This document shows, piece by piece, positions 702-14,338 of a stretch of DNA of 16,386 bases; position 1 is the first letter of the stretch; the number at the start of each line of letters is the position of its first letter. The DNA is from a virus (lineage: Duplodnaviria; Heunggongvirae; Uroviricota; Caudoviricetes). The DNA lies in IMG/VR virus record IMGVR_UViG_2923323785_000006, positions 1 to 16,386 of that record; one strand, written 5' to 3'. The notes beneath the pieces were generated by a model. It was not told the origin of the DNA. It saw nothing but the letters and a program-made list of their open reading frames with translations, and searched no databases. Both the position numbers and the translations under genes were made by a program.

Positions 702-2713
702 TATGCAAGCCTCACAATGTAGTTAAATGCGATGTTTTTGACGGTGTTTTCCGCGTTACCAGCAGCGTTAACGGTGATGGTGTGTCCATGTGAGCCAATC
801 GCAACAGAGTGCGTATGAGCACCAATACCGACAGTATGTGCGTGAGCACCTGCAGATGCGGCTGTGCCGCTGACACTATGAGTGTGCGCTCCTGCAGCAC
901 TTGTATTCACACTGGCCGTAGACACTACCTTATGTACTGACCCATTTTGTGACCACTGGCTGACTGCTGATGCGCCTGTGACACTATGAGTATGGTTTCC
1001 GGCACTTGCGGCTGTACCGCTCACACTGTGCGTATGCGCCCCGGTGTTATTCGTGGATTTAGTGCCGTAATCAAACGACGATGTGGTTTTCGTCCCCAAA
1101 TCCGTACTGGATGCGCTGGCGCTGTGGGTGTGCGATTTAATGCCGTCCTGTTCCTGAGACAATACGGCACGACCACTGGCAGGTTTGCCCTTAATCGTCC
1201 AGCCACGCATATCAGGGATCACGCCTGACGGATAAGCGGCTGCAAGTTTCGGGTATGCAGATTTGTCAAAAGTCTGCCCCTGCATCAGGGCATAACCAGA
1301 CGGAACGGTATCTGATGGCCACGGGATTGGTGCACCGACTGGGTAGCTTTCTGGTGGAAGATTTTTCGAGGTATAAACTTCTGCCCAGTCTTCCTCAAAA
1401 CCATAGCCATCTCTTGAGGAACGGTAGAACAGACCTCCATTTCTGTAATGTGCCTTCATCTGCAAGGTCCGGCAACTTCCGACTCCGGTATAGAAGTTAA
1501 CCAGAATATAGCTGTCGCCAGAGCGGGTGACATTGTAAGCGCCTGATTCGGCATTCCATGGAACGCCCCCATCCGCATCGGCATACGTATCCGTTGCCCT
1601 TCTGGCAAAAGCAGCCACATGCGCGGCGGTTAAAGTAATATCTTTGGAACCATCAAACTCAACACCAGAAACCAGTCTTGGCGTTTGCAGCTTTGTTGCT
1701 GTTAATGCATTACCGTTCAGACTTGCGGACAGTTTGGTTCCAATAACCAGTTCGCCGGTTGCGTTATCAATAGCAAACGGTCTTAATGTATTCCAGCCAC
1801 CATAAACATCACCTTGATTGGTAAGCAGCAGGTAAGTTTTAGCGCCATCATTACGCCATAATGCACCATACTCCCCACCTATCATTCGAATCTGATTACC
1901 ACCACGCGCTACAATTTCGTCTGTGGCAAAAAGTTTTTTGCACGACAAGTTATCGTTAACGATTAACGAATGAGACTCATAAAAACCACGCCCACTCTTA
2001 AAATCAAGGATAACGTCCGCCGCGATACATTCAGTCGCTGGATTTGTTGCCCCAAACTTATAGGTCGTATCATTAACAACGAGATCAGCACCAGGTGCGG
2101 ATATTGACAGGCCATCTTCGATAAACGCAAAAACAGGGAAAGCAGCGCCATCAACATAGAACACAGAGCGCAAATCATCGCCCTTATTACTCATCATTAT
2201 TGAGTGGATGGCTCGTTCATTGTTTTGATATTGCCAGAACATTCCATAAGCATAACGCCCCCTGTCAGTCCAGCCACCAGGCATAACAAATCCGTTAAAC
2301 TCGCAGTTATTCATCGGATCGCCTGCGGTTCGCGTTGCCGTGGTGATAATGACCCTTGATGCCAGTTCGCTTACTGAGCCAGCAGAACGCATAACAACAA
2401 CAGGGTAATATTTTCCAGATGTTGCACCTGCAGGAGCGTTAACCCGCACATAACGCATACCACGCTTATCAGCAAAGTCTGTTTTACTGACCGCGTTAAT
2501 GTTGTTCAGGAAGCGTCCCTTATCGGGTATATCAGCGCCGTTCTGGTCTTTCTGCAGACGTTTCTCAGCATTGTCATTGGCTGCTTTTACTGCCTTTGGC
2601 GTTGCCGCCAGCGTTTCAGACGTGCTGTTGGTCGCACTGCTGAGCTGTACTATCCCCTTTTTCGTCGTGCTCGCATCCTCAAGCGCCACGGCGGATGCAA
2701 TACCGGCGCGACG
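701..2713 (-). pseudogene. stf: 5'-truncated side tail fibre gene (C-terminal ~660 codons of a lambda Stf-like protein; ORF track begins at a GTG at 2689)
   Basis: Translation ...[34 protein letters not shown]... through the His-rich [15 protein letters not shown] repeats and C-terminal ...[29 protein letters not shown] matches the lambda Stf C-terminal part. Homology stops near 2700-2713 where the frame runs into a stop, so the N-terminal ~450 codons are missing. Confidence 0.88.
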
Positions 2714-2772
2714 ATGATGCGGGCCTGTGGAGTTCTGCCGATCTGACTTATGTCATTACCTATGAAATGTGA
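2701..2772 (+). pseudogene. 3' remnant of minor tail protein U gene (last ~23 codons)
   Basis: In-frame translation [23 protein letters not shown] matches the lambda gpU C-terminus as recalled; no upstream continuation. Confidence 0.6.
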
Positions 2773-2778
2773 GGACGA

Positions 2779-3238
2779 TATGCCTGTACCAAATCCAGCA
2801 ATACCGGTGAAAGGTGCCGGAACCACCCTGTGGGTTTATAACGGGAGCGGCGACTCTTATGCGAACCCGCTTTCAGACGTTGACTGGTCGCGTCTGGCTA
2901 AAGTTAAAGACCTGACGCCCGGCGAACTGACCGCTGAGTCCTATGACGACAGTTATCTCGATGATGAAGATGCGGACTGGACCGCGACCGGGCAGGGGCA
3001 GAAATCCGCCGGAGATACCAGCTTCACGCTGGCGTGGATGCCCGGAGAGCAGGGGCAGCAGGCGCTGCTGGCGTGGTTTAATGAAGGTGATACCCGTGCC
3101 TATAAAATCCGCTTCCCACCACAAGCACGCTGCCGCCACCTTTCAGGGCTGAACGCTGCCCCTTTTTACGACGCCTGCGTCGGGACAGGACAATCCGCGC
3201 GTTACCCAGCTTTATTACGGGCAAATCCCCCCGGTTAA
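2779..3238 (+). pseudogene. Major tail protein V, N-terminal fragment (~113 aa of V fused to 40 unrelated codons)
   Basis: [50 protein letters not shown]...AYKIRFP matches the lambda gpV N-terminus; identity ends near nt 3118, after which the ORF continues in unrelated sequence to a stop at 3238. GAGGA Shine-Dalgarno precedes the ATG at 2779. Confidence 0.85.
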
Positions 3239-3295
3239 CCTTGATTCTGGCCTGCGGATTTTTGACCGTGGCCCTTTTCAGCCTGGCCCTTTCCT

Positions 3296-3880
3296 TTACC
3301 AGTTTCCGGCGTACCTTTGTCTCACGGGCAACCTGTGACGCCGACTGCGATATCGCGGATGAAGCAACGCGGTTATCAGTTCATCCAGCGCGGCTGCTTT
3401 GTTCATGGCTTTGATGATATCCCGTTTCAGGAAATCAACATGTCGGTTTTCCAGTTCCGGAAAACGCCGCTGCACCGACAGGGGGATCCCGTCGAGAATA
3501 CTGGCAATTTCACCTGCGATCCGCGACAGCACGAAAGTACAGAATGCGGTTTCCACCACTTCAGCGGAGTCTCTGGCATTTTTCAGCTCCTGTGCGTCGG
3601 CCTGCGCACGCGTAAGTCGATGGCGTTCGTACTCAATAGTCCCTGGCTGGAGATCTGTCTCGCTGGCCTGCCGCAGTTCTTCAACTTCCCGGCGCAGCTT
3701 TTCGTTCTCAATTTCAGCATCCCTTTCGGCATACCATCTTATAACGGCGGCAGAGTCATAAAGCACCTCATTACCCTTGCCACCGCCTCGCAGAACGGGC
3801 ATTCCCTGTTCCTGCCAGTTCTGAATGGTACGGATACTCGCACCGAAAATGTCAGCCAGCTGCTTTTTGTTGACTTCCAT
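3296..3880 (-). CDS. nohD: Terminase small subunit Nu1 homologue with replaced C-terminus (194 aa)
   Basis: MEVNKKQLADIFGASIRTIQNWQEQGMPVLRGGGKGNEVLYDSAAV... is near-identical to lambda Nu1 up to ...AAALDELI (about residue 171), then diverges (ITALLHPRYRSRRHRLPVRQRYAGNW). No gpA large terminase gene follows. Confidence 0.9.
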   Translation of the reverse strand: MEVNKKQLADIFGASIRTIQNWQEQGMPVLRGGGKGNEVLYDSAAVIRWYAERDAEIENEKLRREVEELRQASETDLQPGTIEYERHRLTRAQADAQELKNARDSAEVVETAFCTFVLSRIAGEIASILDGIPLSVQRRFPELENRHVDFLKRDIIKAMNKAAALDELITALLHPRYRSRRHRLPVRQRYAGNW

Positions 3881-7904: not shown

Positions 7905-9002
7905 ATGAAAAAATTAACAGTGGCAATTTCTGCTGTAGCTGCATCAGTACTGATGGCGATGTCTGCTCAGGCAGCTGAAATTTATAATAAAGACAGTAAC
8001 AAGCTGGATCTGTACGGGAAAGTTAATGCCAAGCACTACTTTTCCTCTAACGATGCAGATGATGGTGATACTACTTATGTTCGTCTGGGCTTCAAAGGCG
8101 AAACCCAAATCAACGATCAGCTGACTGGTTTCGGTCAGTGGGAATATGAATTCAAAGGCAACCGCGCTGAATCTCAAGGTTCCTCCAAAGACAAAACCCG
8201 TCTTGCATTTGCAGGCCTGAAATTCGGTGACTACGGCTCAATCGATTACGGCCGTAACTACGGTGTAGCATACGACATCGGTGCGTGGACTGACGTTCTG
8301 CCAGAATTCGGTGGCGATACCTGGACCCAAACAGATGTGTTCATGACTGGTCGCACCACTGGTGTTGCAACCTATCGTAACAACGACTTCTTTGGTCTGG
8401 TTGATGGTCTGAACTTTGCTGCTCAGTACCAAGGCAAAAACGATCGTAGCGATTTCGATAACTACACCGAAGGTAACGGTGATGGCTTCGGTTTCTCTGC
8501 TACCTATGAATACGAAGGATTCGGTATCGGTGCAACTTATGCGAAATCTGATCGTACCGACACTCAAGTTAATGCAGGGAAAGTTCTTCCTGAAGTATTT
8601 GCTTCCGGTAAAAATGCAGAAGTTTGGGCCGCAGGTCTGAAATATGACGCTAACAACATTTACCTGGCCACTACCTATTCTGAAACCCAGAATATGACTG
8701 TATTTGCTGATCACTTCGTTGCTAATAAAGCTCAAAACTTCGAAGCTGTTGCACAATATCAGTTCGATTTCGGTCTGCGTCCGTCCGTTGCTTACCTGCA
8801 ATCTAAAGGTAAGGATCTTGGAGTATGGGGCGATCAGGACTTAGTCAAATATGTTGATGTAGGTGCAACCTATTACTTCAACAAAAATATGTCTACTTTC
8901 GTTGATTACAAAATCAACCTGCTTGACAAAAATGACTTCACTAAAGCACTCGGTGTAAGCACTGATGACATCGTTGCTGTAGGTCTGGTTTACCAGTTCT
9001 AA
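7905..9002 (+). CDS. nmpC: General outer-membrane porin NmpC (OmpC/OmpF/PhoE family), intact, 365 aa
   Basis: Signal peptide [23 protein letters not shown], then [17 protein letters not shown]... and C-terminal ...VAVGLVYQF (terminal Phe, beta-barrel signature); classic enterobacterial porin motifs throughout. Confidence 0.93.
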
Positions 9003-9140: not shown

Positions 9141-9165
9141 GGGGCGTTGCAACGCCCCATTTTTA
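9141..9165 (+). terminator. Intrinsic terminator (ggggcg-ttgcaa-cgcccc followed by ATTTTTA), probable nmpC terminator
   Basis: Seen in sequence: perfect 6-bp GC stem, 6-nt loop, T-tract on + strand. Confidence 0.65.
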
Positions 9166-9191: not shown

Positions 9192-9575
9192 TTAATTAGA
9201 GTTATTAACAACGATATCCATCTCTAACCGGATATCTAATGCCATTAACATCCCTTCAATTATGCCCTCAGCCTTCTGTAACCTTTTCCCGATATAACCA
9301 TCAGAGCAGCAATGCTTACCTGCCAGTGACATGAATGTCATACCGACTACATAATAATCTACTAATAAATCGTGCAAATCGCTGTTGTTCTTTTTCAGAC
9401 GGGCCATGCACCCGCAAATGATCATCGCGTCATCGTCACAACATTGCGGGCGAGATTTTACTTTTGAAGGAATTAATCCCTTAAAACCGGCGGCAATGGA
9501 CGACCAGGTCACATCTTCATGATTATTAGCCGCCCACGCTCCCCAACGTTCAAGAACCATCTGAATATCACGCAT
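9192..9575 (-). CDS. quuD: Late-gene antiterminator Q (127 aa)
   Basis: [62 protein letters not shown]... matches my recollection of DLP12 QuuD; ATG at 9575 with GGAGAAAG Shine-Dalgarno; position directly upstream of the lysis cassette. Confidence 0.85.
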
Positions 9576-9592
9576 TAACTTTCTCCACAAAA

Positions 9593-10588
9593 TCAGGCCA
9601 GCACACCAATCGCCAGTGCGCGATCGATAAAACGAAATATCAGCTCCAGCTGGGAGCCATACTTCTCTTCAAATGCCACGGTATCCGCATGCAGTTCGTC
9701 GTGGTGTTTTCTGCACAAAGGCAGCACAAAAAGGTCATGCGCTTTTGTACCCATTCCACCCTGACCATGGCCTATCAGATGATGCGGATCATCAGCTGGC
9801 TTTCCACAACATGCACACGGCTGCGTCTTAACCCAGCGCGTGTACTGTTCATTAACCCAGCGACGACGTTTGGGGCGTAACATAAAAGACTCCGGCGACT
9901 CCGGATCCACTTTCAGCGCCAGCACCTTTTTCGCTTTATCCTGGATAATGCTGGTGGCAGGAACCGAAGGCACAAGGTCACTTTCCCGGGTGACAGACGG
10001 CAAAACAGACTTCGGTAATCTCAGTGCCTTACGGGCTGCGCTTTCCGGTAAGGCATCCGCCAGGTCATTACGAACCAGCCACCAGCACAGTTCCGGCATT
10101 GTCACGGCATGGTTATCATTAAAATCGAGATCCCGACGGACTACAGACAACACCCAATGGGCACAGTTATCCGTTGCCATTGATTCCAGCCGCTCCGTGA
10201 ACTGATCACGTAACTGATTATCGCAGTGCCAGCACAGACGGATTGCGCCCGGCGCGTGTCGCATTGTGGTCATGTTCTCGCTGTGCCAGTCGGAATGAGG
10301 CCACTGGCAGCCTTTTTCACGAAGTAACCAGCTTTCAAGACATTCCACCCCACCAGCACGACGAATCACTGCCTCATTACGGAACACGGCCCGAACGGCA
10401 GGATCATCCGCCAGCGGTTGTGATGCCGCGGGAACGGCACCACTGGCGAAAGATGAATAATGCTCCGGCTCAGGCTCCAGCAGTACACGCCCCTGCATAA
10501 ACAGGGGCATCAGCTCTGAACCGGGCCTGAACAATACGATCCCCATACGCGGGGCAATTTCAGGGGTCAGTAGTGCTCTCACGGTCAC
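9593..10588 (-). CDS. DUF968-like (YdfU-like) protein with C-terminal HNH-like metal-binding motif (about 329-331 aa; start GTG at 10588 or 10582)
   Basis: C-terminal ...[46 protein letters not shown]... has CxxC, His-His and C..HH..H spacing typical of HNH nucleases; additional CWHC motif mid-protein. Sits immediately upstream of Q, like ydfU-quuQ in the Qin prophage (from memory). Confidence 0.7.
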
Positions 10589-10589
10589 C

Positions 10590-11387
10590 TCAATGAACGG
10601 TATCGAGCAGCTTTAACAGCTCAGGGAATCGGGATTCGAAGAAATGCGGCTGCGTCTCGCGCGGATTTGCGGGACTGGTGATGTTCTTGCCGAACATGCA
10701 GCCTTTCGCTGTCAGCGACCAGAATTTTTTGATGTTGTTAATAGCGGTACGGCTGTATCGTTCGCGCTGCTCGACGATCCCCAGCTTCACCATCTGGTGA
10801 TATGCCTGATTAGCTGTCAGGCGGATACCATACTGCTTCAGCAGTGCACTCAGTGACAGCGTGGGACGGCTTGAGCCATCAGGCGCGTCAGCAGGAGCAT
10901 CAATGGCATAGCGCGGTGCCAGATTCGGTAAGCCAACAGCCTCCTGGAGTTTCTGACAGGCACCAAGCACTGAAGAGTTAGACAGGTTTAACTCCCGGCG
11001 CATAAAGTCCAGCAGAATCACGCCAGCCTGCATCTTGTCAGCAGCCTGCCCGGATAATTTTTCCGATGCGCTGGTTACCATATCGAAAGTACGGATCACC
11101 TTCAGATGGAATGACGGGCTGATCCACATTGCATAGGCATACACCAGTTCTTTGCAGACATACGTCCCCTGGTTATTTCCGCCACGAATAACGTTAACTG
11201 GCTCTATATTGACCGAGTTGCAAATCTGCAACTCGCTTATTAAACGTTCAGTTTGCTCATTGCGGAGCCAGAATGCAGGCTTATGCTTATCCAGAGAACC
11301 GGCAGCCCTGTGCAGATCGTTCAGGCTGTAACGCCCATAAGCATCACGACGAACTTCAATACCATCAATGACCATCAGATTATTCAT
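10590..11387 (-). CDS. KilA-N domain protein with ANT/KilAC-like C-terminal half (antirepressor-like, 265 aa)
   Basis: N-terminus MNNLMVIDGIEVRRDAYGRYSLNDLHRAAGSLDKHKPAFWLRNEQTERLISEL... resembles the KilA-N fold family; ATG at 11387 with AGAGGAGAAA Shine-Dalgarno. The ORF-track GTG extension to 11420 is rejected. Confidence 0.72.
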   Translation of the reverse strand: MNNLMVIDGIEVRRDAYGRYSLNDLHRAAGSLDKHKPAFWLRNEQTERLISELQICNSVNIEPVNVIRGGNNQGTYVCKELVYAYAMWISPSFHLKVIRTFDMVTSASEKLSGQAADKMQAGVILLDFMRRELNLSNSSVLGACQKLQEAVGLPNLAPRYAIDAPADAPDGSSRPTLSLSALLKQYGIRLTANQAYHQMVKLGIVEQRERYSRTAINNIKKFWSLTAKGCMFGKNITSPANPRETQPHFFESRFPELLKLLDTVH

Positions 11388-11406
11388 ACTTCGTTTCTCC
11401 TCTTGA

Positions 11407-11796
11407 TCAGGCGGCTGCACCCGCCGTTTTCTCGTACTTACTGATAGTGATCTCGACCTTCCCTTCCGGGATAACCGGTCCCCACTCCACCAGCATTCTT
11501 TTCACCTGGCTGTCGTCTTCCCACACACCCGCGTGGGTCAGGGCGTCAAACAGCGCCTTGTTATAGTTGTCCAGATCGCGGATCCGGTTATCCGGAGGAA
11601 ACAACACGATCTCCACTGAAGCAGGTGCCGACGTTGGTTTCGGCAGACGACGTAACTGCTCAACTATTGCTGTGCACGCCGCACTCTGGAATTTTCGCCC
11701 CGCCGCGCTTATCAGGCTCTTACCAGCAAATGCCCCTTTGTTGGGGTGTCGCCAGTAGGTGTTCACGCTGGGTGGAAAAGGCAGAATCAGCTTCAT
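11407..11796 (-). CDS. rusA: RusA-family Holliday junction resolvase (129 aa)
   Basis: MKLILPFPPSVNTYWRH... and RDLDNYNKALFDALTHAGVWEDDSQV match RusA catalytic-region motifs. ATG at 11796 overlaps the stop of the upstream gene (ATGA); GAGGGGG Shine-Dalgarno. Confidence 0.85.
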   Translation of the reverse strand: MKLILPFPPSVNTYWRHPNKGAFAGKSLISAAGRKFQSAACTAIVEQLRRLPKPTSAPASVEIVLFPPDNRIRDLDNYNKALFDALTHAGVWEDDSQVKRMLVEWGPVIPEGKVEITISKYEKTAGAAA

Positions 11797-12119
11797 ACTT
11801 TCAGCCCCCTCTCATGTAACCAGTGGGCTGCACGCAGCCTGGCGTTTTCCTCACCAGCAAGCAGTGCGCGGATAATCCCGGCCACCTCGCTGTCGTCGTC
11901 CTTCACCGCGGTATGAAGCGTGATGCCCCGGGCCACGCCACGCTTTATCGTGATGACGCCTTTTTTCTCCAGTGCGCGAAGATGCTCCACCGCTGCATTC
12001 ACTGAACGGTATCCCAGCATGGTAGCCACCTCCTGATTGGTTGGCGGGAAGCCACGTTCTTTCTGGTAAGAAATCAGCATATCCAGCACCTGCTGCTGGC
12101 ATTGAGTTAACGTCGTCAT
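11793..12119 (-). CDS. LexA N-terminal DNA-binding-domain-only protein (about 108 aa; no S24 peptidase domain)
   Basis: MTTLTQCQQQVLDMLISYQKERGFPPTNQEVATMLGYRSVNAAVEHLRALEKKGVITIKRGVARGITL aligns position-by-position with the LexA winged-helix domain (recalled from memory); the protein ends about 40 aa later. ATG at 12119 overlaps the upstream stop (TAATG); GGGGG Shine-Dalgarno. Confidence 0.8.
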   Translation of the reverse strand: MTTLTQCQQQVLDMLISYQKERGFPPTNQEVATMLGYRSVNAAVEHLRALEKKGVITIKRGVARGITLHTAVKDDDSEVAGIIRALLAGEENARLRAAHWLHERGLKV

Positions 12120-12370
12120 TAAGCCCCCACGTAATTCCCTGACAGATACCACTCTTCACCCGATACAGCGCGCTTGCTGCTTTTCCGTAAACACCGCTCA
12201 CGACGCGCAAGAAAATTGTTTCGCTCTTGCTGGGAGTGGCTTTCACGGAATGCCGCCATCCACACCGTTGCAGCACGACGGTATAAGCCCCTGGACTCCA
12301 GTTCTTCCGCCTGGCGGGTCAGGCACAAAATCACCCGGGGATCGTTAGTGCCGACATAGAAATTGTGCAC
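12119..12370 (-). CDS. Small PerC/Pch-like putative transcriptional activator (83 aa, GTG start)
   Basis: Motif AEELESRGLYRRAATVWMAAF resembles the LE..G.WRRAA..W core I recall for the PerC family; family assignment is from memory and the start codon is GTG without a strong Shine-Dalgarno. Confidence 0.5.
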   Translation of the reverse strand: MHNFYVGTNDPRVILCLTRQAEELESRGLYRRAATVWMAAFRESHSQQERNNFLARRERCLRKSSKRAVSGEEWYLSGNYVGA

Positions 12371-12406
12371 AGGTCTGGATTCACGAACTGGTTGCGGTTC
12401 CGGCTC

Positions 12407-12607
12407 CTACGGTATCTCAGTCAGCCGCGGGAAATGTCTGCGTGTATCCCCTTCACAACGGTGAGCCACACGCCCACTCTGACGTAACTTGCTTGCTGAC
12501 TGCAGAACGCGCTGTCGTGAGTAACCTGCAAAAGCATCAGCAATGTCTCCGGAAGTACACCCCGGATGGGCTTCAATGAATTTCTGAACGTCATTCAAAA
12601 GACTCAT
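12407..12607 (-). CDS. Small hypothetical protein (66 aa), possible winged-helix DNA-binding fold; first gene of the minus-strand operon
   Basis: ATG at 12607 with GGGGGTGA Shine-Dalgarno 6 nt upstream; MSLLNDVQKFIEAHPGCTSGDIADAFAGYSRQRVLQSASKLRQSGRV... The ORF-track extension to 12730 is rejected (Arg/Gln-rich, no ribosome-binding site). Confidence 0.45.
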   Translation of the reverse strand: MSLLNDVQKFIEAHPGCTSGDIADAFAGYSRQRVLQSASKLRQSGRVAHRCEGDTRRHFPRLTEIP

Positions 12608-12849
12608 GATCACCCCCTGAATCCTGCCGGGATCTGGCTGTAGTCCACGTTGTCGTAACTGGCTTTGAAGTACGGGTCTTCGCGTTTTTCGGTGTACGTG
12701 CTGACTATTCTGCAGGAAGACTATGGACAATTACTGACTCTTGCCGGTGAACCTGACGGAAAACTACGCGCAGCAGGTCATTAATATCGTTCTTAATAAA
12801 CTGATTATTTATCTCATCACTGAATATCTTTATATAGTGAGGACTTATT
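12608..12849. promoter_or_regulatory. Divergent intergenic region between the minus-strand (nin/Q/late) and plus-strand (yfdQ...int) operons; presumed promoters, no repressor gene
   Basis: No ORF with repressor features on either strand; AGTGAGGA Shine-Dalgarno for the first plus-strand gene at 12836-12843; promoter hexamers not confidently assignable by eye. Confidence 0.4.
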
Positions 12850-13674
12850 ATGTCTCAGAACTTAGACGCAACCGCAATTAATCAAATCCATGCCCTTATT
12901 TCTGCTCAGGGTGTTAATGAAATTATCAGTAAGATTTGTGCCGATGCTGTGGCATTGCCTGAGAATTTCCGCATTCATGATCTGGAAAAATTTAATTTAA
13001 ATCGCTTCCGTTTCCGTGGTGCGCTTTCCACTGCCAGCATCGATGACTTTACCCGTTATTCTAAAGATCTTGCAGATGAAGGCACCCGCTGCTTTATCGA
13101 TGCCGATAATATGCAAGCCGTCAGTGTGCTTAACCTGGGTACTATTGATGAACCAGGTCACGCAGATAACACCGCCACTCTCAAACTGAAAAAGACAGCA
13201 CCGTTCTCTGCCCTGTTGTCTGTTAACGGCGAGCGTAACTCCCAGAAGTCACTGGCAGAATGGATTGAAGACTGGGCCGACTACCTTGTGGGCTTTGATG
13301 CTAATGGTGACGCCATTCAGGCAACCAAAGCGGCTGCGGCGATCCGTAAAATCACAATTGAAGCGAACCAGACCGCTGATTTTGAAGATAATGACTTCAG
13401 CGGCAAACGCTCCCTGATGGAGTCTGTCGAAGCGAAGACCAAAGACATTATGCCAGGGGCATTTGAATTTAAATGCGTTCCGTTTGAAGGTCTGAAAGAA
13501 CGTCCATTTAAATTACGCCTCAGCATTATCACTGGCGATCGTCCTGTACTGGTTCTGCGCATTATTCAGCTGGAAGCGGTGCAGGAAGAAATGGCTAACG
13601 AATTTCGTGATCTGCTTGTTGAGAAATTCAAAGACAGCAAAGTAGAAACCTTTATTGGTACTTTCACCGCCTGA
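12850..13674 (+). CDS. yfdQ: YfdQ-like protein (DUF2303-type, 274 aa)
   Basis: [21 protein letters not shown]...; length and sequence match my recollection of CPS-53 YfdQ; first gene of a four-gene cluster. Confidence 0.75.
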
Positions 13675-13710: not shown

Positions 13711-13801
13711 GGAAACGTAATTAACTCAATAATCACCGGATGGTGAGGGCTTCCTTTTACCAGAATTCAGCGCGGTGCAGTGCATACACGTGGAGAACAA
13801 A

Positions 13802-14338
13802 ATGTCATTTATTAAAACTTTTTCCGGGAAGCATTTTTATTATGACAAGATAAATAAAGACGACATCGATATTAACGATATCGCGGTTTCCCTTTCAAAT
13901 ATCTGTCGCTTTGCCGGTCATCTTTCGCACTTCTACAGCGTCGCCCAACATGCGGTTCTTTGCAGCCAGCTGGTGCCGCAGGAATTTGCTTTTGAAGCGT
14001 TAATGCATGATGCAACAGAAGCGTATTGCCAGGACATTCCCGCACCACTGAAACGCCTTCTTCCTGACTATAAACGGATGGAAGAAAAAATAGACGCCGT
14101 AATCCGTGAGAAATACGGGTTACCCCCAGTTATGAGTACACCCGTGAAATATGCCGATCTCATCATGCTGGCAACCGAACGCCGCGATCTCGGGCTTGAT
14201 GATGGCTCTTTCTGGCCTGTACTGGAAGGCATCCCGGCAACAGAGATGTTCAACGTGATTCCACTGGCACCGGGTCATGCCTACGGGATGTTTATGGAAC
14301 GTTTTAACGATTTATCGGAGTTACGCAAATGCGCATGA
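13802..14338 (+). CDS. yfdR: HD-domain phosphohydrolase, YfdR-like 5'-deoxynucleotidase (178 aa)
   Basis: ATG at 13802 with GGAGAA Shine-Dalgarno; HD-domain metal-binding signature ...FAGHLSHFYSVAQHAVL...MHDATEAY...; length equals K-12 YfdR as recalled. The ORF-track GTG start at 13775 is rejected. Confidence 0.85.
   Translation: MSFIKTFSGKHFYYDKINKDDIDINDIAVSLSNICRFAGHLSHFYSVAQHAVLCSQLVPQEFAFEALMHDATEAYCQDIPAPLKRLLPDYKRMEEKIDAVIREKYGLPPVMSTPVKYADLIMLATERRDLGLDDGSFWPVLEGIPATEMFNVIPLAPGHAYGMFMERFNDLSELRKCA

Follow-up and report, generated by a model that had tools for sequence, protein, structure and literature searches.

The gene at 9593-10588 on the minus strand of the window (the whole stretch of DNA that was analysed, 16,386 nucleotides long) is an intact, ordinary member of DUF968, a known and already classified family, and its sequence predicts a nuclease. 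We lean towards the explanation that it encodes a two-module zinc protein whose C-terminal HNH domain would nick recombination or replication intermediates alongside RusA, by analogy with its nearest relatives. Three points were already in print in 2017 and are not new: the assignment to HNH, the RusA/Q neighbourhood and a recombination role like that of NinG. Jablonska et al. (2017, PMC5714182) placed DUF968 and DUF1364 in His-Me finger group 7, recorded the RusA, Q and antirepressor neighbours of DUF968, and proposed that it works in recombination in the manner of NinG or Ref. A literature search on the Pfam family turned up nothing further than this classification.

Gene structure and family membership

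With the GTG at 10588 as its first codon, the ORF translates into 331 aa and ends in a TGA stop codon at 9593-9595. The true start is probably the second GTG, at 10582, which would give a protein of 329 aa, because it is the start used by RefSeq, a GAGG Shine-Dalgarno sequence that overlaps the KilA-N stop lies 5 nt before it, and homologues start with MRALLTP. RefSeq titles the protein (WP_001358249) 'DUF968 domain-containing protein'. The gene, its domains and its motifs are listed below; the motif set is far beyond chance.

9593..10588, minus strand: DUF968 (YdfU-like) gene, from its translation, Pfam DUF968, RefSeq WP_001358249 and Shine-Dalgarno context
10352..10588, minus strand: N-terminal subdomain, residues 1-79, a small beta-hairpin with short helices
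10124..10351, minus strand: N-terminal zinc module, residues 80-155, outside every Pfam model
10223-10234, minus strand: C119-W120-H121-C122 ('CWHC'); C119 invariant, W120 in 40/41 sequences
9854..10123, minus strand: helical and extended linker, residues 156-245, equivalent to the N-terminal half of the Pfam DUF968 profile
9659..9853, minus strand: C-terminal HNH (His-Me finger) core, residues 246-310
9806-9817, minus strand: C258-A-C-C261, first zinc knuckle of the HNH domain; C258 invariant
9779-9784, minus strand: H269-H270, in DPH269H270LIGHGQGG; both at least 90% conserved, with the predicted general-base His ending beta-strand 1
9689-9715, minus strand: C292-R-K-H295-H296-D-E-L-H300, within LPLC292RKH295H296DELH300; matches P1 Ref 'LPLCRWHH' and Gp16 'LCREHHNEQH'

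The DUF968 identity given in the initial annotation is borne out by Pfam DUF968 (PF06147), which matched residues 162-328 over profile positions 2-171 of 171 (271.7 bits against a cutoff of 27.8, E=3.4e-81). Family members include YdfU of the E. coli Qin prophage, phage SfV orf45, mEp460 gp49 and ST64B sb47/48, from which the window protein differs in nothing material. Pfam HNHc_6 (PF16784) narrowly passed its cutoff (27.3 against 26.6 bits, E=3.2e-6) over residues 253-310 only, corresponding to profile positions 123-184 of 204; the N-terminal NinB/Orf-like domain of the HNHc_6 type is absent. PHROG 96, 'HNH endonuclease', matched over the full length (E=4.6e-176), and PHROGs and RefSeq already use that name for homologues. 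These matches agree with the HNH-type C-terminal spacing seen earlier, and CACC, HH, D and CRKHHDELH are all present. An NCBIfam scan returned no matches.

Conservation of the HNH core and the putative N-terminal zinc module

The C-terminal ~80 residues are, judged by their sequence, a canonical His-Me/HNH domain. In the AlphaFold model of the protein (pLDDT 91.1) the core runs through a helix (247-254), two beta-strands (267-270 and 288-291) and a second helix (293-301). This is the beta-beta-alpha-metal fold of the His-Me finger/HNH superfamily, with a predicted general-base His ending strand 1 and predicted metal-ligand His/Asn/Asp in the helix. The predicted zinc ligands are C258, C261, C292 and H295. 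The predicted catalytic or metal-binding residues are H269 and H270 in strand 267-270, D285 at the 'N' position, and H296 and H300 in helix 293-301. D285 is invariant in the 41-sequence alignment, where each of H269, H270, H296 and H300 shows conservation of 90% or more. All five are invariant in a second alignment of 28 C-terminal domains, which leaves out the PdcB clade described below.

The initial annotation had named a purely structural zinc ribbon as the outcome that would count against a nuclease. Conservation favours a catalytic site in the window protein's clade, since the catalytic His/Asp residues are retained even in a clade without the zinc ligands. The zinc ligands and HH-D-H-H are both present in 164 of 218 C-terminal domains. 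About 14 representatives of the 218 have lost zinc ligands (C261 to T/S/N, C292 to S/H/R/A, H295 to E/A/Q) and keep HH-D-H-H intact. Where the zinc site is kept, position 295 alternates between H and C. We therefore rejected a purely structural ribbon for this clade, given that its zinc-less variants keep HH-D-H-H.

The CWHC motif noted earlier in mid-protein lies at C119-C122, within a module consisting of a helix (80-88), two beta-strands (106-111 and 114-119) and two further helices (120-126 and 132-153). Four ligand columns stand out among the 41 sequences: C94 in 40, C or H at position 102 (21 and 19 sequences), C119 in all 41, and H or C at position 122 (27 and 14). In the window protein these are C94, H102, C119 and C122. 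Two readings of this module are new here, and the support for both is weak to moderate: CWHC may supply half the ligands of a second C-(C/H)-C-(C/H) zinc site that is found throughout the family, and the module's beta-beta-alpha fold resembles a degenerate HNH copy without the catalytic His. The Pfam DUF968 model begins at residue 162 and thus misses the module. Its profile gave noise only against PDB sequences and Pfam (E up to 10), Foldseek of the N-terminal model against BFVD found nothing at E<=0.001, and a search of a 5.8-billion-protein database recovered only fragments of DUF968 proteins and no new domain architectures. The subdomain at residues 1-79 has no recognisable relatives. The linker contains a conserved ELCWW helix and, just ahead of the HNH, a basic RPK(R/x)RW motif in which P239 and K240 are near-invariant.

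Comparison with Ref, Gp16, NinG and PdcB

The structure and profile comparison with HNH nucleases suggested earlier led to P1 Ref, YbcO and IscB, all of them closer structural matches than a packaging-type HNH (HK97 gp74). [quoted passage not shown] Aligning the C-terminal profile with Ref by hhalign gave E=3.2e-5, with 'LPLCRWHH' aligned to 'LPLCRKHH'. The link to Ref rests on structure and profile comparison, because Ref was absent from a HMMER search of PDB sequences, where the best match was YbcO at only E=0.1, and RecA_dep_nuc did not match the protein. A single-sequence PDB search yielded only chance C2H2 zinc-finger matches, plus YbcO at E=1.3. YbcO (DUF1364, PDB 3g27) is a 96-aa single domain without the N-terminal 245 residues of the DUF968 protein. 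That region is folded and carries the putative second zinc site, whereas the Ref N-terminus is disordered, basic and 76 residues long (PMC4330346).

The closest tested relative is Gp16 of Staphylococcus phage phiNM1, an HNHc_6 protein that is a RecA-interacting nickase in vitro and whose cleavage is enhanced by RecA (NAR 2026, PMC12817073). Its HNH core is 41% identical to that of the DUF968 protein over 59 residues (E=3e-10), and its residues C145, C148, H157, C181, H184, H185 and H189 align with C258, C261, H270, C292, H295, H296 and H300. The similarity is reciprocal: Gp16 exceeds the Pfam DUF968 cutoff just as the window protein exceeds that of HNHc_6. Each is encoded by an early phage gene, within a replication/recombination region where RusA is encoded as well. 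The description of the family as uncharacterised in the initial annotation thus holds for wet-lab work on DUF968 itself, but the family was classified in 2017 (PMC5714182) and its sister HNHc_6 includes Gp16. Gp16 H157A, equivalent to H270, left toxicity unrelieved (PMC12817073), so the catalytic assignment in this subfamily is provisional. The N-terminal domain of Gp16 is NinB-like, unlike that of DUF968. Since the N-terminal domains of both Ref and Gp16 differ from that of DUF968, RecA dependence may not carry over.

The comparison with NinG/Rap, which the initial annotation had raised, showed no kinship beyond the superfamily. [quoted passage not shown] Its gene, like that of DUF968, falls broadly within the nin region, the stretch that separates the replication genes from Q. 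At 204 aa it is unlike the DUF968 protein in size and architecture. Pfam NinG did not match the DUF968 protein at E<=0.01 (lambda NinG itself scores 309.5 bits), and the best BLASTP alignment of the two proteins had E=1.6 over 6 residues. We rejected NinG orthology on these results. As to the parallel drawn between the slot upstream of Q and that of lambda NinG, both genes lie in the nin region; Q follows DUF968 immediately, but the lambda order is ninG-ninH-ninI-Q, with ninG three genes before Q.

P1 PdcB is a DUF968 member with 25% identity to the window protein over 99% of its length (E=8e-39). It has the same N-terminal zinc module (LCWHHDN) and lies directly upstream of the late-gene activator gene lpa. 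Its HNH keeps CxxC...CxxC; H270, H296 and H300 are replaced by I, Q and E, and the GHGxGGMG loop is deleted, and we predict that PdcB is inactive as a nuclease. PdcB is non-essential (PMC10695390, PMC10067587), and a pdcB::kan mutant is available (PMC10067587). As the PdcB clade keeps the whole protein without the catalytic His residues, the family scaffold must have some value independent of cleavage.

Operon context and weighing of functions

The gene sits in a DLP12-like defective prophage at argU; this copy may not be expressed. It is the fourth gene in the order LexA-like, RusA, KilA-N, DUF968, Q:

11793..12152, minus strand: gene for a protein with a LexA DNA-binding domain only (Pfam LexA_DNA_bind E=3.7e-19), first of a conserved four-gene module
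11407..11796, minus strand: RusA Holliday-junction resolvase gene (Pfam RusA E=7.4e-15; PHROG 34)
10590..11420, minus strand: KilA-N domain (antirepressor-like) gene (Pfam KilA-N E=2.4e-26)
9192..9590, minus strand: antiterminator Q (quuD), the next operon gene (Pfam Phage_antitermQ, PF06530, E=9.8e-54)

RusA is therefore two genes from DUF968, as had been noted, with KilA-N between them. The KilA-N gene stops 1 nt ahead of the first GTG in the DUF968 ORF. The RefSeq start of Q is an ATG at 9575, 17 nt past the DUF968 stop and preceded by a GGAG Shine-Dalgarno sequence. This spacing is compatible with a single operon. A promoter and terminator scan found no promoter-like site upstream of the DUF968 gene, with promoter counts not above those of shuffles. 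A tandem-repeat search in the tail-fibre gene found none.

We compared 80 IMG/VR loci that are 96-97% identical and come from a tight alignment, making them informative on gene order and not on diversity. DUF968 lies directly upstream of Q and is linked to RusA in all 80, and in 74 it is preceded by KilA-N, accompanied by RusA and usually by the LexA-like gene. The Q next to DUF968 in lambdoid phages is of two unrelated types. Neither NinG nor NinB occurs within 6 kb in any of the 80 loci, and the absence of NinG is compatible with functional substitution. A search for homologues yielded roughly 3000 representatives. Diverse homologues adjoin RusA, VRR-NUC or antirepressors and lie upstream of late regulators. 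The same module is present in the functional phage mEp460. Close homologues are carried by SfV and Stx-converting phages, and by P1-like phage-plasmids in the form of PdcB. By megablast, the gene matched 3719 of 5426 complete E. coli genomes (about two-thirds), at up to 6 places per genome.

In the function we lean towards, the product would be expressed from the delayed-early (nin-region) operon of a lambdoid prophage of the SfV/mEp460 type, and its C-terminal ~80 residues would be a catalytically competent HNH domain. The beta-beta-alpha fold of this domain would be braced by a CCCH zinc site (C258, C261, C292, H295). H270, which closes strand 1, would act as general base, and the catalytic divalent metal would be held by H269, H296 and H300 together with D285, which takes the 'N' position. 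The predicted enzyme would most likely nick DNA at recombination or replication intermediates (D-loops, branched DNA) by analogy with P1 Ref and phiNM1 Gp16, possibly helped by RecA, and it would work with the co-transcribed RusA resolvase in early lytic growth. The N-terminal half, with its second zinc site (C94, H102, C119, C122), would probably serve recognition of DNA structure or of a partner and not catalysis. The recombination or branched-DNA role earlier judged plausible is thus the one best inferred from the closest relatives, Ref and Gp16, together with the RusA linkage.

A fuller version of this reading is tentative and, taken as a whole, rather unlikely. DUF968 would be a tandem double-HNH derived from an ancient internal duplication, and its N-module, which has lost the catalytic His and is now conserved more strongly than any other part of the family, would be a DNA-structure or RecA-recognition element for the active C-terminal HNH. 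In lambdoid phages of the SfV/mEp460 type, the enzyme would be a RecA- or D-loop-directed nickase that replaces NinG/Rap. In the P1 PdcB clade both HNH copies would then be 'dead', and this double pseudo-nuclease would persist for a task other than catalysis beside the late-gene activator.

A nuclease effector directed at the host or a competitor, attacking the host chromosome or incoming rival phage or plasmid DNA (shut-off, superinfection exclusion, anti-defence) and not recombination intermediates of the phage itself, overlaps with the nickase reading, and the two are not mutually exclusive; we consider it doubtful. Expression of Gp16, the closest characterised relative, inhibits host growth and host replication (PMC12817073), and P1 Ref raises ciprofloxacin lethality in lysogens (PMC4713147). 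The intact gene in a defective prophage and its matches in the 3719 E. coli genomes would also fit a benefit to lysogens. Yet the gene is part of the Q-upstream early operon, whose genes are repressed in lysogens, and its tight linkage to RusA points elsewhere. PADLOC gave no defence-system family at E<=0.01, and an immunity or antitoxin partner is not evident. A non-catalytic zinc-finger protein that has only structural Cys/His clusters and binds a partner or DNA, such as a regulator near the late-gene activator, seems improbable. It would account for the PdcB clade, which is maintained upstream of lpa with both zinc sites and without H270, H296 and H300, for the position directly before Q of two unrelated types, and for an N-module zinc site more conserved than the catalytic residues. 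However, the conservation of the catalytic His/Asp in the window protein's clade runs against it, and the gene would also come last before Q simply by ending the nin region.

Two further HNH functions were rejected. A packaging-associated nuclease like HK97 gp74, aiding terminase at cos/pac, is very improbable and fails on gene position, as DUF968 is not adjacent to terminase: it sits upstream of Q within the early operon, separated from the small terminase remnant (3296-3880) by the lysis cassette, a porin gene and Q itself, and the gene order is identical in mEp460. Vibrio phage Her has a DUF968 gene plus a separate protein, 'hnh endonuclease' by its structure note, beside the small terminase. 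Free-standing HNH genes of phages are often homing endonucleases, selfish mobile genes. We give this reading almost no credence for DUF968 and rejected it on the syntenic position, conserved across homologues of 25% to 97% identity, and on the maintenance of a catalytically degenerate clade. Also against it are the large conserved non-nuclease N-terminal half and the absence of DNA-binding modules typical of homing enzymes.

If DUF968 works as a nickase of the Ref or Gp16 kind, the lambdoid toolkit would gain a second widespread recombination or DNA-processing nuclease beside RusA. It could then affect prophage induction, recombination between prophages (Stx phages included) and, as for P1 Ref, how cells respond to DNA-damaging antibiotics. 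Direct handles for experiments are offered by the second zinc module and by two clades, one with catalytic residues but without zinc ligands, the other with zinc sites but without catalytic residues.

The DUF968 gene and its operon

With 100% identity, the window matches part of the chromosome of E. coli MB06101 and holds a DLP12-like defective lambdoid prophage inserted beside a tRNA-Arg gene. This prophage retains intD, yfdQRT-like early genes, a nin-type region, quuD, a porin gene, the essD/rrrD/rzpD lysis genes and bor, and its terminase, tail and tail-fibre genes are truncated remnants. Five genes follow each other in transcription order:

11793-12152 (-), LexA-DNA-binding-domain protein gene
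11407-11796 (-), RusA gene
10590-11420 (-), KilA-N protein gene
9593-10588 (-), DUF968 gene
9192-9590 (-), Q antiterminator gene (quuD)

Their spacing is consistent with a single operon. A promoter scan found no promoter-like site upstream of the DUF968 gene, and quuD starts 17 nt past its stop. The second GTG of the DUF968 ORF, at 10582, is preceded at 5 nt by a GAGG Shine-Dalgarno sequence overlapping the KilA-N stop; this is the RefSeq start, yielding a product of 329 aa, the length of most homologues.

The initial annotation placed the gene immediately upstream of Q and two genes from RusA, as we find it. It also assigned the gene to the slot just upstream of Q that NinG/Rap fills in lambda, but the lambda order is ninG-ninH-ninI-Q, so that the region is common and the slot is not. 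All motifs it quoted, including CWHC, occur in the 331-aa translation, from which residues are numbered:

9806-9817 (-), C258-A-C-C261
9779-9784 (-), HH codons of DPH269-H270-LIGHGQGG
9689-9715 (-), LPLC292-RK-H295-H296-DEL-H300
10223-10234 (-), C119-W-H-C122

The protein matched Pfam DUF968 (residues 162-328, E=3.4e-81), Pfam HNHc_6, a 'putative HNHc nuclease' (residues 253-310, 27.3 bits against a curated cutoff of 26.6), and, over its whole length, PHROG 96 ('HNH endonuclease', E=4.6e-176). Judging by these matches, the motif set is not due to chance. The copy in the window shares 97% identity with phage genes that are already annotated. Membership of the NinG/Rap family was rejected by Pfam and BLASTP comparisons. 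Four database entries (P0010, P0049, P0060 and P0066) have a KilA-N domain fused to DUF968; since the two genes lie 1 nt apart here, these are probably frameshifts, read-throughs or mis-called genes and not true fusions.

A zinc-finger HNH motif in DUF968 proteins, as well as fusions to Erf, Rad52 and RusA, was reported by Curtis et al. 2014 (PMC4118853). Jablonska et al. 2017 placed DUF968 in His-Me finger group 7 with YdfU and YbcO, already remarked on the RusA, Q and antirepressor neighbours, and suggested a part in recombination like that of NinG or Ref (PMC5714182). PHROGs and RefSeq label the homologues 'HNH endonuclease'. The HNH observation of the initial annotation was correct and its nuclease inference reasonable, but neither was new. 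Its description of the family as uncharacterised is apt for laboratory work on DUF968 itself, but overlooks the classification published in 2017. Among the listed uncharacterised E. coli genes, ydfU still appears (PMC11551758).

Conservation of the C-terminal HNH domain

We modelled the protein with AlphaFold2 from a 41-sequence alignment (mean pLDDT 91.1). In the model, residues 246-310 form a predicted beta-beta-alpha unit, with a helix (247-254), two strands (267-270 and 288-291) and a second helix (293-301). Structural comparison gave the highest score to the P1 HNH endonuclease Ref (3plw; 7.6 over 79 residues, 25% identity), followed by the IscB HNH (6.1), YbcO (3g27; 5.7), the CBASS Cap5 HNH (5.6) and EcoKMcrA (4.9). 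Although Ref is the nearest solved structure, membership of Pfam RecA_dep_nuc was rejected. The domain profile matched Ref with E=3.2e-5, pairing 'PCIAC...LHHIAG...LPLCRWHHQ-H' of Ref with the DUF968 segment that begins 'PCACCG...PHHLIGHG'. The HNH core of Gp16 from Staphylococcus phage phiNM1, a strong HNHc_6 member that also passes the DUF968 cutoff, is 41% identical over 59 residues (E=3e-10); this core alone is common to HNHc_6/Gp16 and the DUF968 protein. The mutated Gp16 residues C148, C181, H184, H157, H185 and H189 correspond to C261, C292, H295, H270, H296 and H300. Ref and Gp16 are the nearest characterised relatives of the DUF968 protein, an identification that is new here. Gp16, characterised in 2026, is an early protein that nicks DNA in vitro, inhibits host growth, and binds and is stimulated by RecA (PMC12817073). 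Ref is described as a RecA-dependent HNH nuclease with cut sites within RecA-made D-loops.

The initial annotation named a purely structural zinc ribbon as the finding that would refute a nuclease. Full-length homologue alignments comprised 38-41 sequences with 25-85% identity, and we sorted 218 C-terminal domains by nine key positions. Both sites were intact (CC...C(H/C) plus HH-D-H-H) in 164 domains, among which position 295 is sometimes H and sometimes C, as would be expected of a fourth zinc ligand. In about 14 representatives the zinc ligands were gone (C261 to T/S/N, C292 to S/H/R/A, H295 to E/A/Q) while H269, H270, D285, H296 and H300 were all intact. Conversely, the clade of PdcB, the P1 homologue (PdcB, P0190, P0198, P0250), retained CxxC...CxxC but had its catalytic histidines replaced and the GHGxGGMG loop deleted. 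Within the window protein's clade, conservation of the His/Asp set does not depend on the zinc site, a pattern that matches the prediction for a catalytic metal site. As this set is kept irrespective of the zinc ligands, natural variation points to a catalytic site and away from the structural ribbon. This argument is new here.

Of the four zinc ligands of the HNH domain, the zinc-less clade (P0172, P0183, P0228, P0229, P0230, P0242, P0261 and locus L006 5001-6032) lacks two or three. Its catalytic His/Asp are complete, and it may represent HNH domains folding without structural zinc.

By its sequence, the PdcB clade appears catalytically degenerate, which is recognised here for the first time, and PdcB looks like a pseudo-nuclease with a non-catalytic role. 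Both zinc-ligand sets are kept in this clade (L003 4001-5044, P1 pdcB; L094 2360-3403; proteins P0190, P0198, P0250), which is maintained in P1-like phage-plasmids. P1 pdcB lies immediately ahead of the C1-controlled promoter from which the late activator lpa is expressed, and is reported to be a non-essential gene of unknown function (PMC10695390, PMC10067587).

A second predicted zinc site in the N-terminal module

Residues 1-160 are without annotation because the Pfam DUF968 model begins at residue 162. Over all 41 aligned sequences, PdcB-like ones included, four columns of the N-module (residues 80-155) behave like metal ligands: C94 (C in 40), 102 (C in 21, H in 19), C119 (C in all 41) and 122 (H in 27, C in 14). 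W120 (40/41) and D123 (37/41) are also conserved. This strongly suggests that CWHC supplies half the ligands of a second zinc site. Two conserved Cys/His ligand sets are therefore present, both presumably occupied by zinc. The second, universally conserved site in a previously unannotated module is new here. In the AlphaFold2 model, the order of elements around these ligands mirrors that of the C-terminal HNH.

Table. Corresponding elements of the N-module and the C-terminal HNH.
Element: N-module; C-terminal HNH
Helix: 80-88; 247-254
First two ligands: C94, H102; C258, C261
Strand 1: 106-111; 267-270
Strand 2: 114-119; 288-291
Ligand 3, at or just past strand 2 end: C119; C292
Ligand 4, first helical turn: C122; H295
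Helix past strand 2: 120-126; 293-301

Profile-profile comparison aligned the two modules collinearly over 73-75 columns (E=0.007-0.008), a score matched in just 3 of 200 column shuffles, and paired C119/C292, C122/H295, D123/H296 and R127/H300. Position 111, equivalent to the general-base His, is variable (H 10, Y 10, V 5, others). A degenerate, non-catalytic HNH-like module is thus moderately supported; its origin by an old internal duplication is speculative. Searches of Pfam, PDB sequences and BFVD models gave no match to the N-module, and when 5.8 billion proteins were searched by profile, every hit was a DUF968 protein or a fragment of one.

Gene neighbourhoods and possible role

Megablast matched the DUF968 gene in 3719 of 5426 complete E. 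coli genomes, 2362 of them with at least 80% of the gene covered, at up to six places per genome. With tblastn, DUF968 was found in 186 phage records (e.g. SfV orf45, mEp460, Stx-converting, ST64B, Klebsiella, Yersinia and Vibrio phages, P1/P7) and 869 plasmid records, mostly P1-like. For so widespread a gene our results are useful experimental leads, if no surprise to a specialist.

Among 80 IMG/VR loci with a 96-97% identical gene, Q followed directly in all 80, and KilA-N preceded in 74, with RusA and mostly a LexA-like gene. The Q genes are of two unrelated types (39 and 39), which places a mosaic joint directly after DUF968. Neither NinG nor NinB occurred within 6 kb in these loci. The functional phage mEp460 has the order replication protein - PerC - methylase-like - LexA-like - RusA - KilA-N - 'HNH endonuclease' - Q. 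Distant homologues are arranged as follows:

P0143: RusA - antirepressor - DUF968 - Q - lysis
P0183 (zinc-less): DUF968 - VRR-NUC, a nuclease gene in place of Q
P0228: DUF968 - RusA
P0195: DUF968 - small ORF - PF03589 antiterminator - lysis - terminase
P0190 and P1 (PdcB-type): DUF968 - late promoter activator Lpa

Since gene order is alike in close and distant homologues, DUF968 regularly belongs to the late end of the early (replication/recombination) region, where its neighbour is often a junction resolvase.

Our analysis establishes DUF968 membership, the HNH fold, the conserved catalytic residues and the operon position with RusA and Q. We consider it probable that the protein is an active HNH nuclease. 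It would be made early in lytic growth, and its C-terminal HNH would nick or cut DNA using a divalent metal, while the N-terminal zinc module may serve to recognise a DNA structure or a partner. The analogy with Ref and Gp16 and the RusA/VRR-NUC linkage suggest that the substrates could be recombination or replication intermediates, perhaps with RecA involved; action on recombination intermediates or a RecA link is a tentative proposal, somewhat short of an even chance. A nuclease effector directed at the host or a competitor is an alternative that overlaps with this proposal. A non-catalytic zinc protein is a plausible reading of the PdcB clade, though not of the window protein's clade, where the His/Asp set is conserved. 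Two further alternatives are improbable: a packaging HNH, in view of where the gene lies, and a homing endonuclease, in view of the conserved synteny and the catalytically degenerate clade.

The prophage is decayed, yet its RusA-to-Q module is intact. RefSeq marks the PerC-family regulator yfdN (12119-12613, -) as interrupted by an internal stop, and at 2700-3880 it marks several tail, tail-tube and terminase remnants that are truncated. The tail-fibre fragment (701-2689, -) has a His-rich, imperfectly repeated end, in which Tandem Repeats Finder saw no DNA-level repeat. The early-left region, flanked by the integrase end and the nin module, has a YfdR-like HD-domain 5'-deoxynucleotidase gene (13775-14338, +) and a YfdQ/DUF2303 gene (12850-13674, +). 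Q and the lysis cassette flank an intact OmpC/NmpC-like porin gene on the opposite strand (7905-9002, +), at the position of the toxin genes in Stx phages. A strong GC-rich hairpin (9141-9158), with a T-run after it, separates the porin gene from the quuD end. The 119-aa LexA-like protein (11793-12152, -) has only the LexA DNA-binding domain (PF01726, residues 12-76), without the S24 self-cleavage domain, and could be an uncleavable LexA-box binder modulating SOS genes. The stop of its gene overlaps the RusA start, and of the 80 related viral loci, 69 have this gene at the head of the LexA-like > RusA > KilA-N > DUF968 module.
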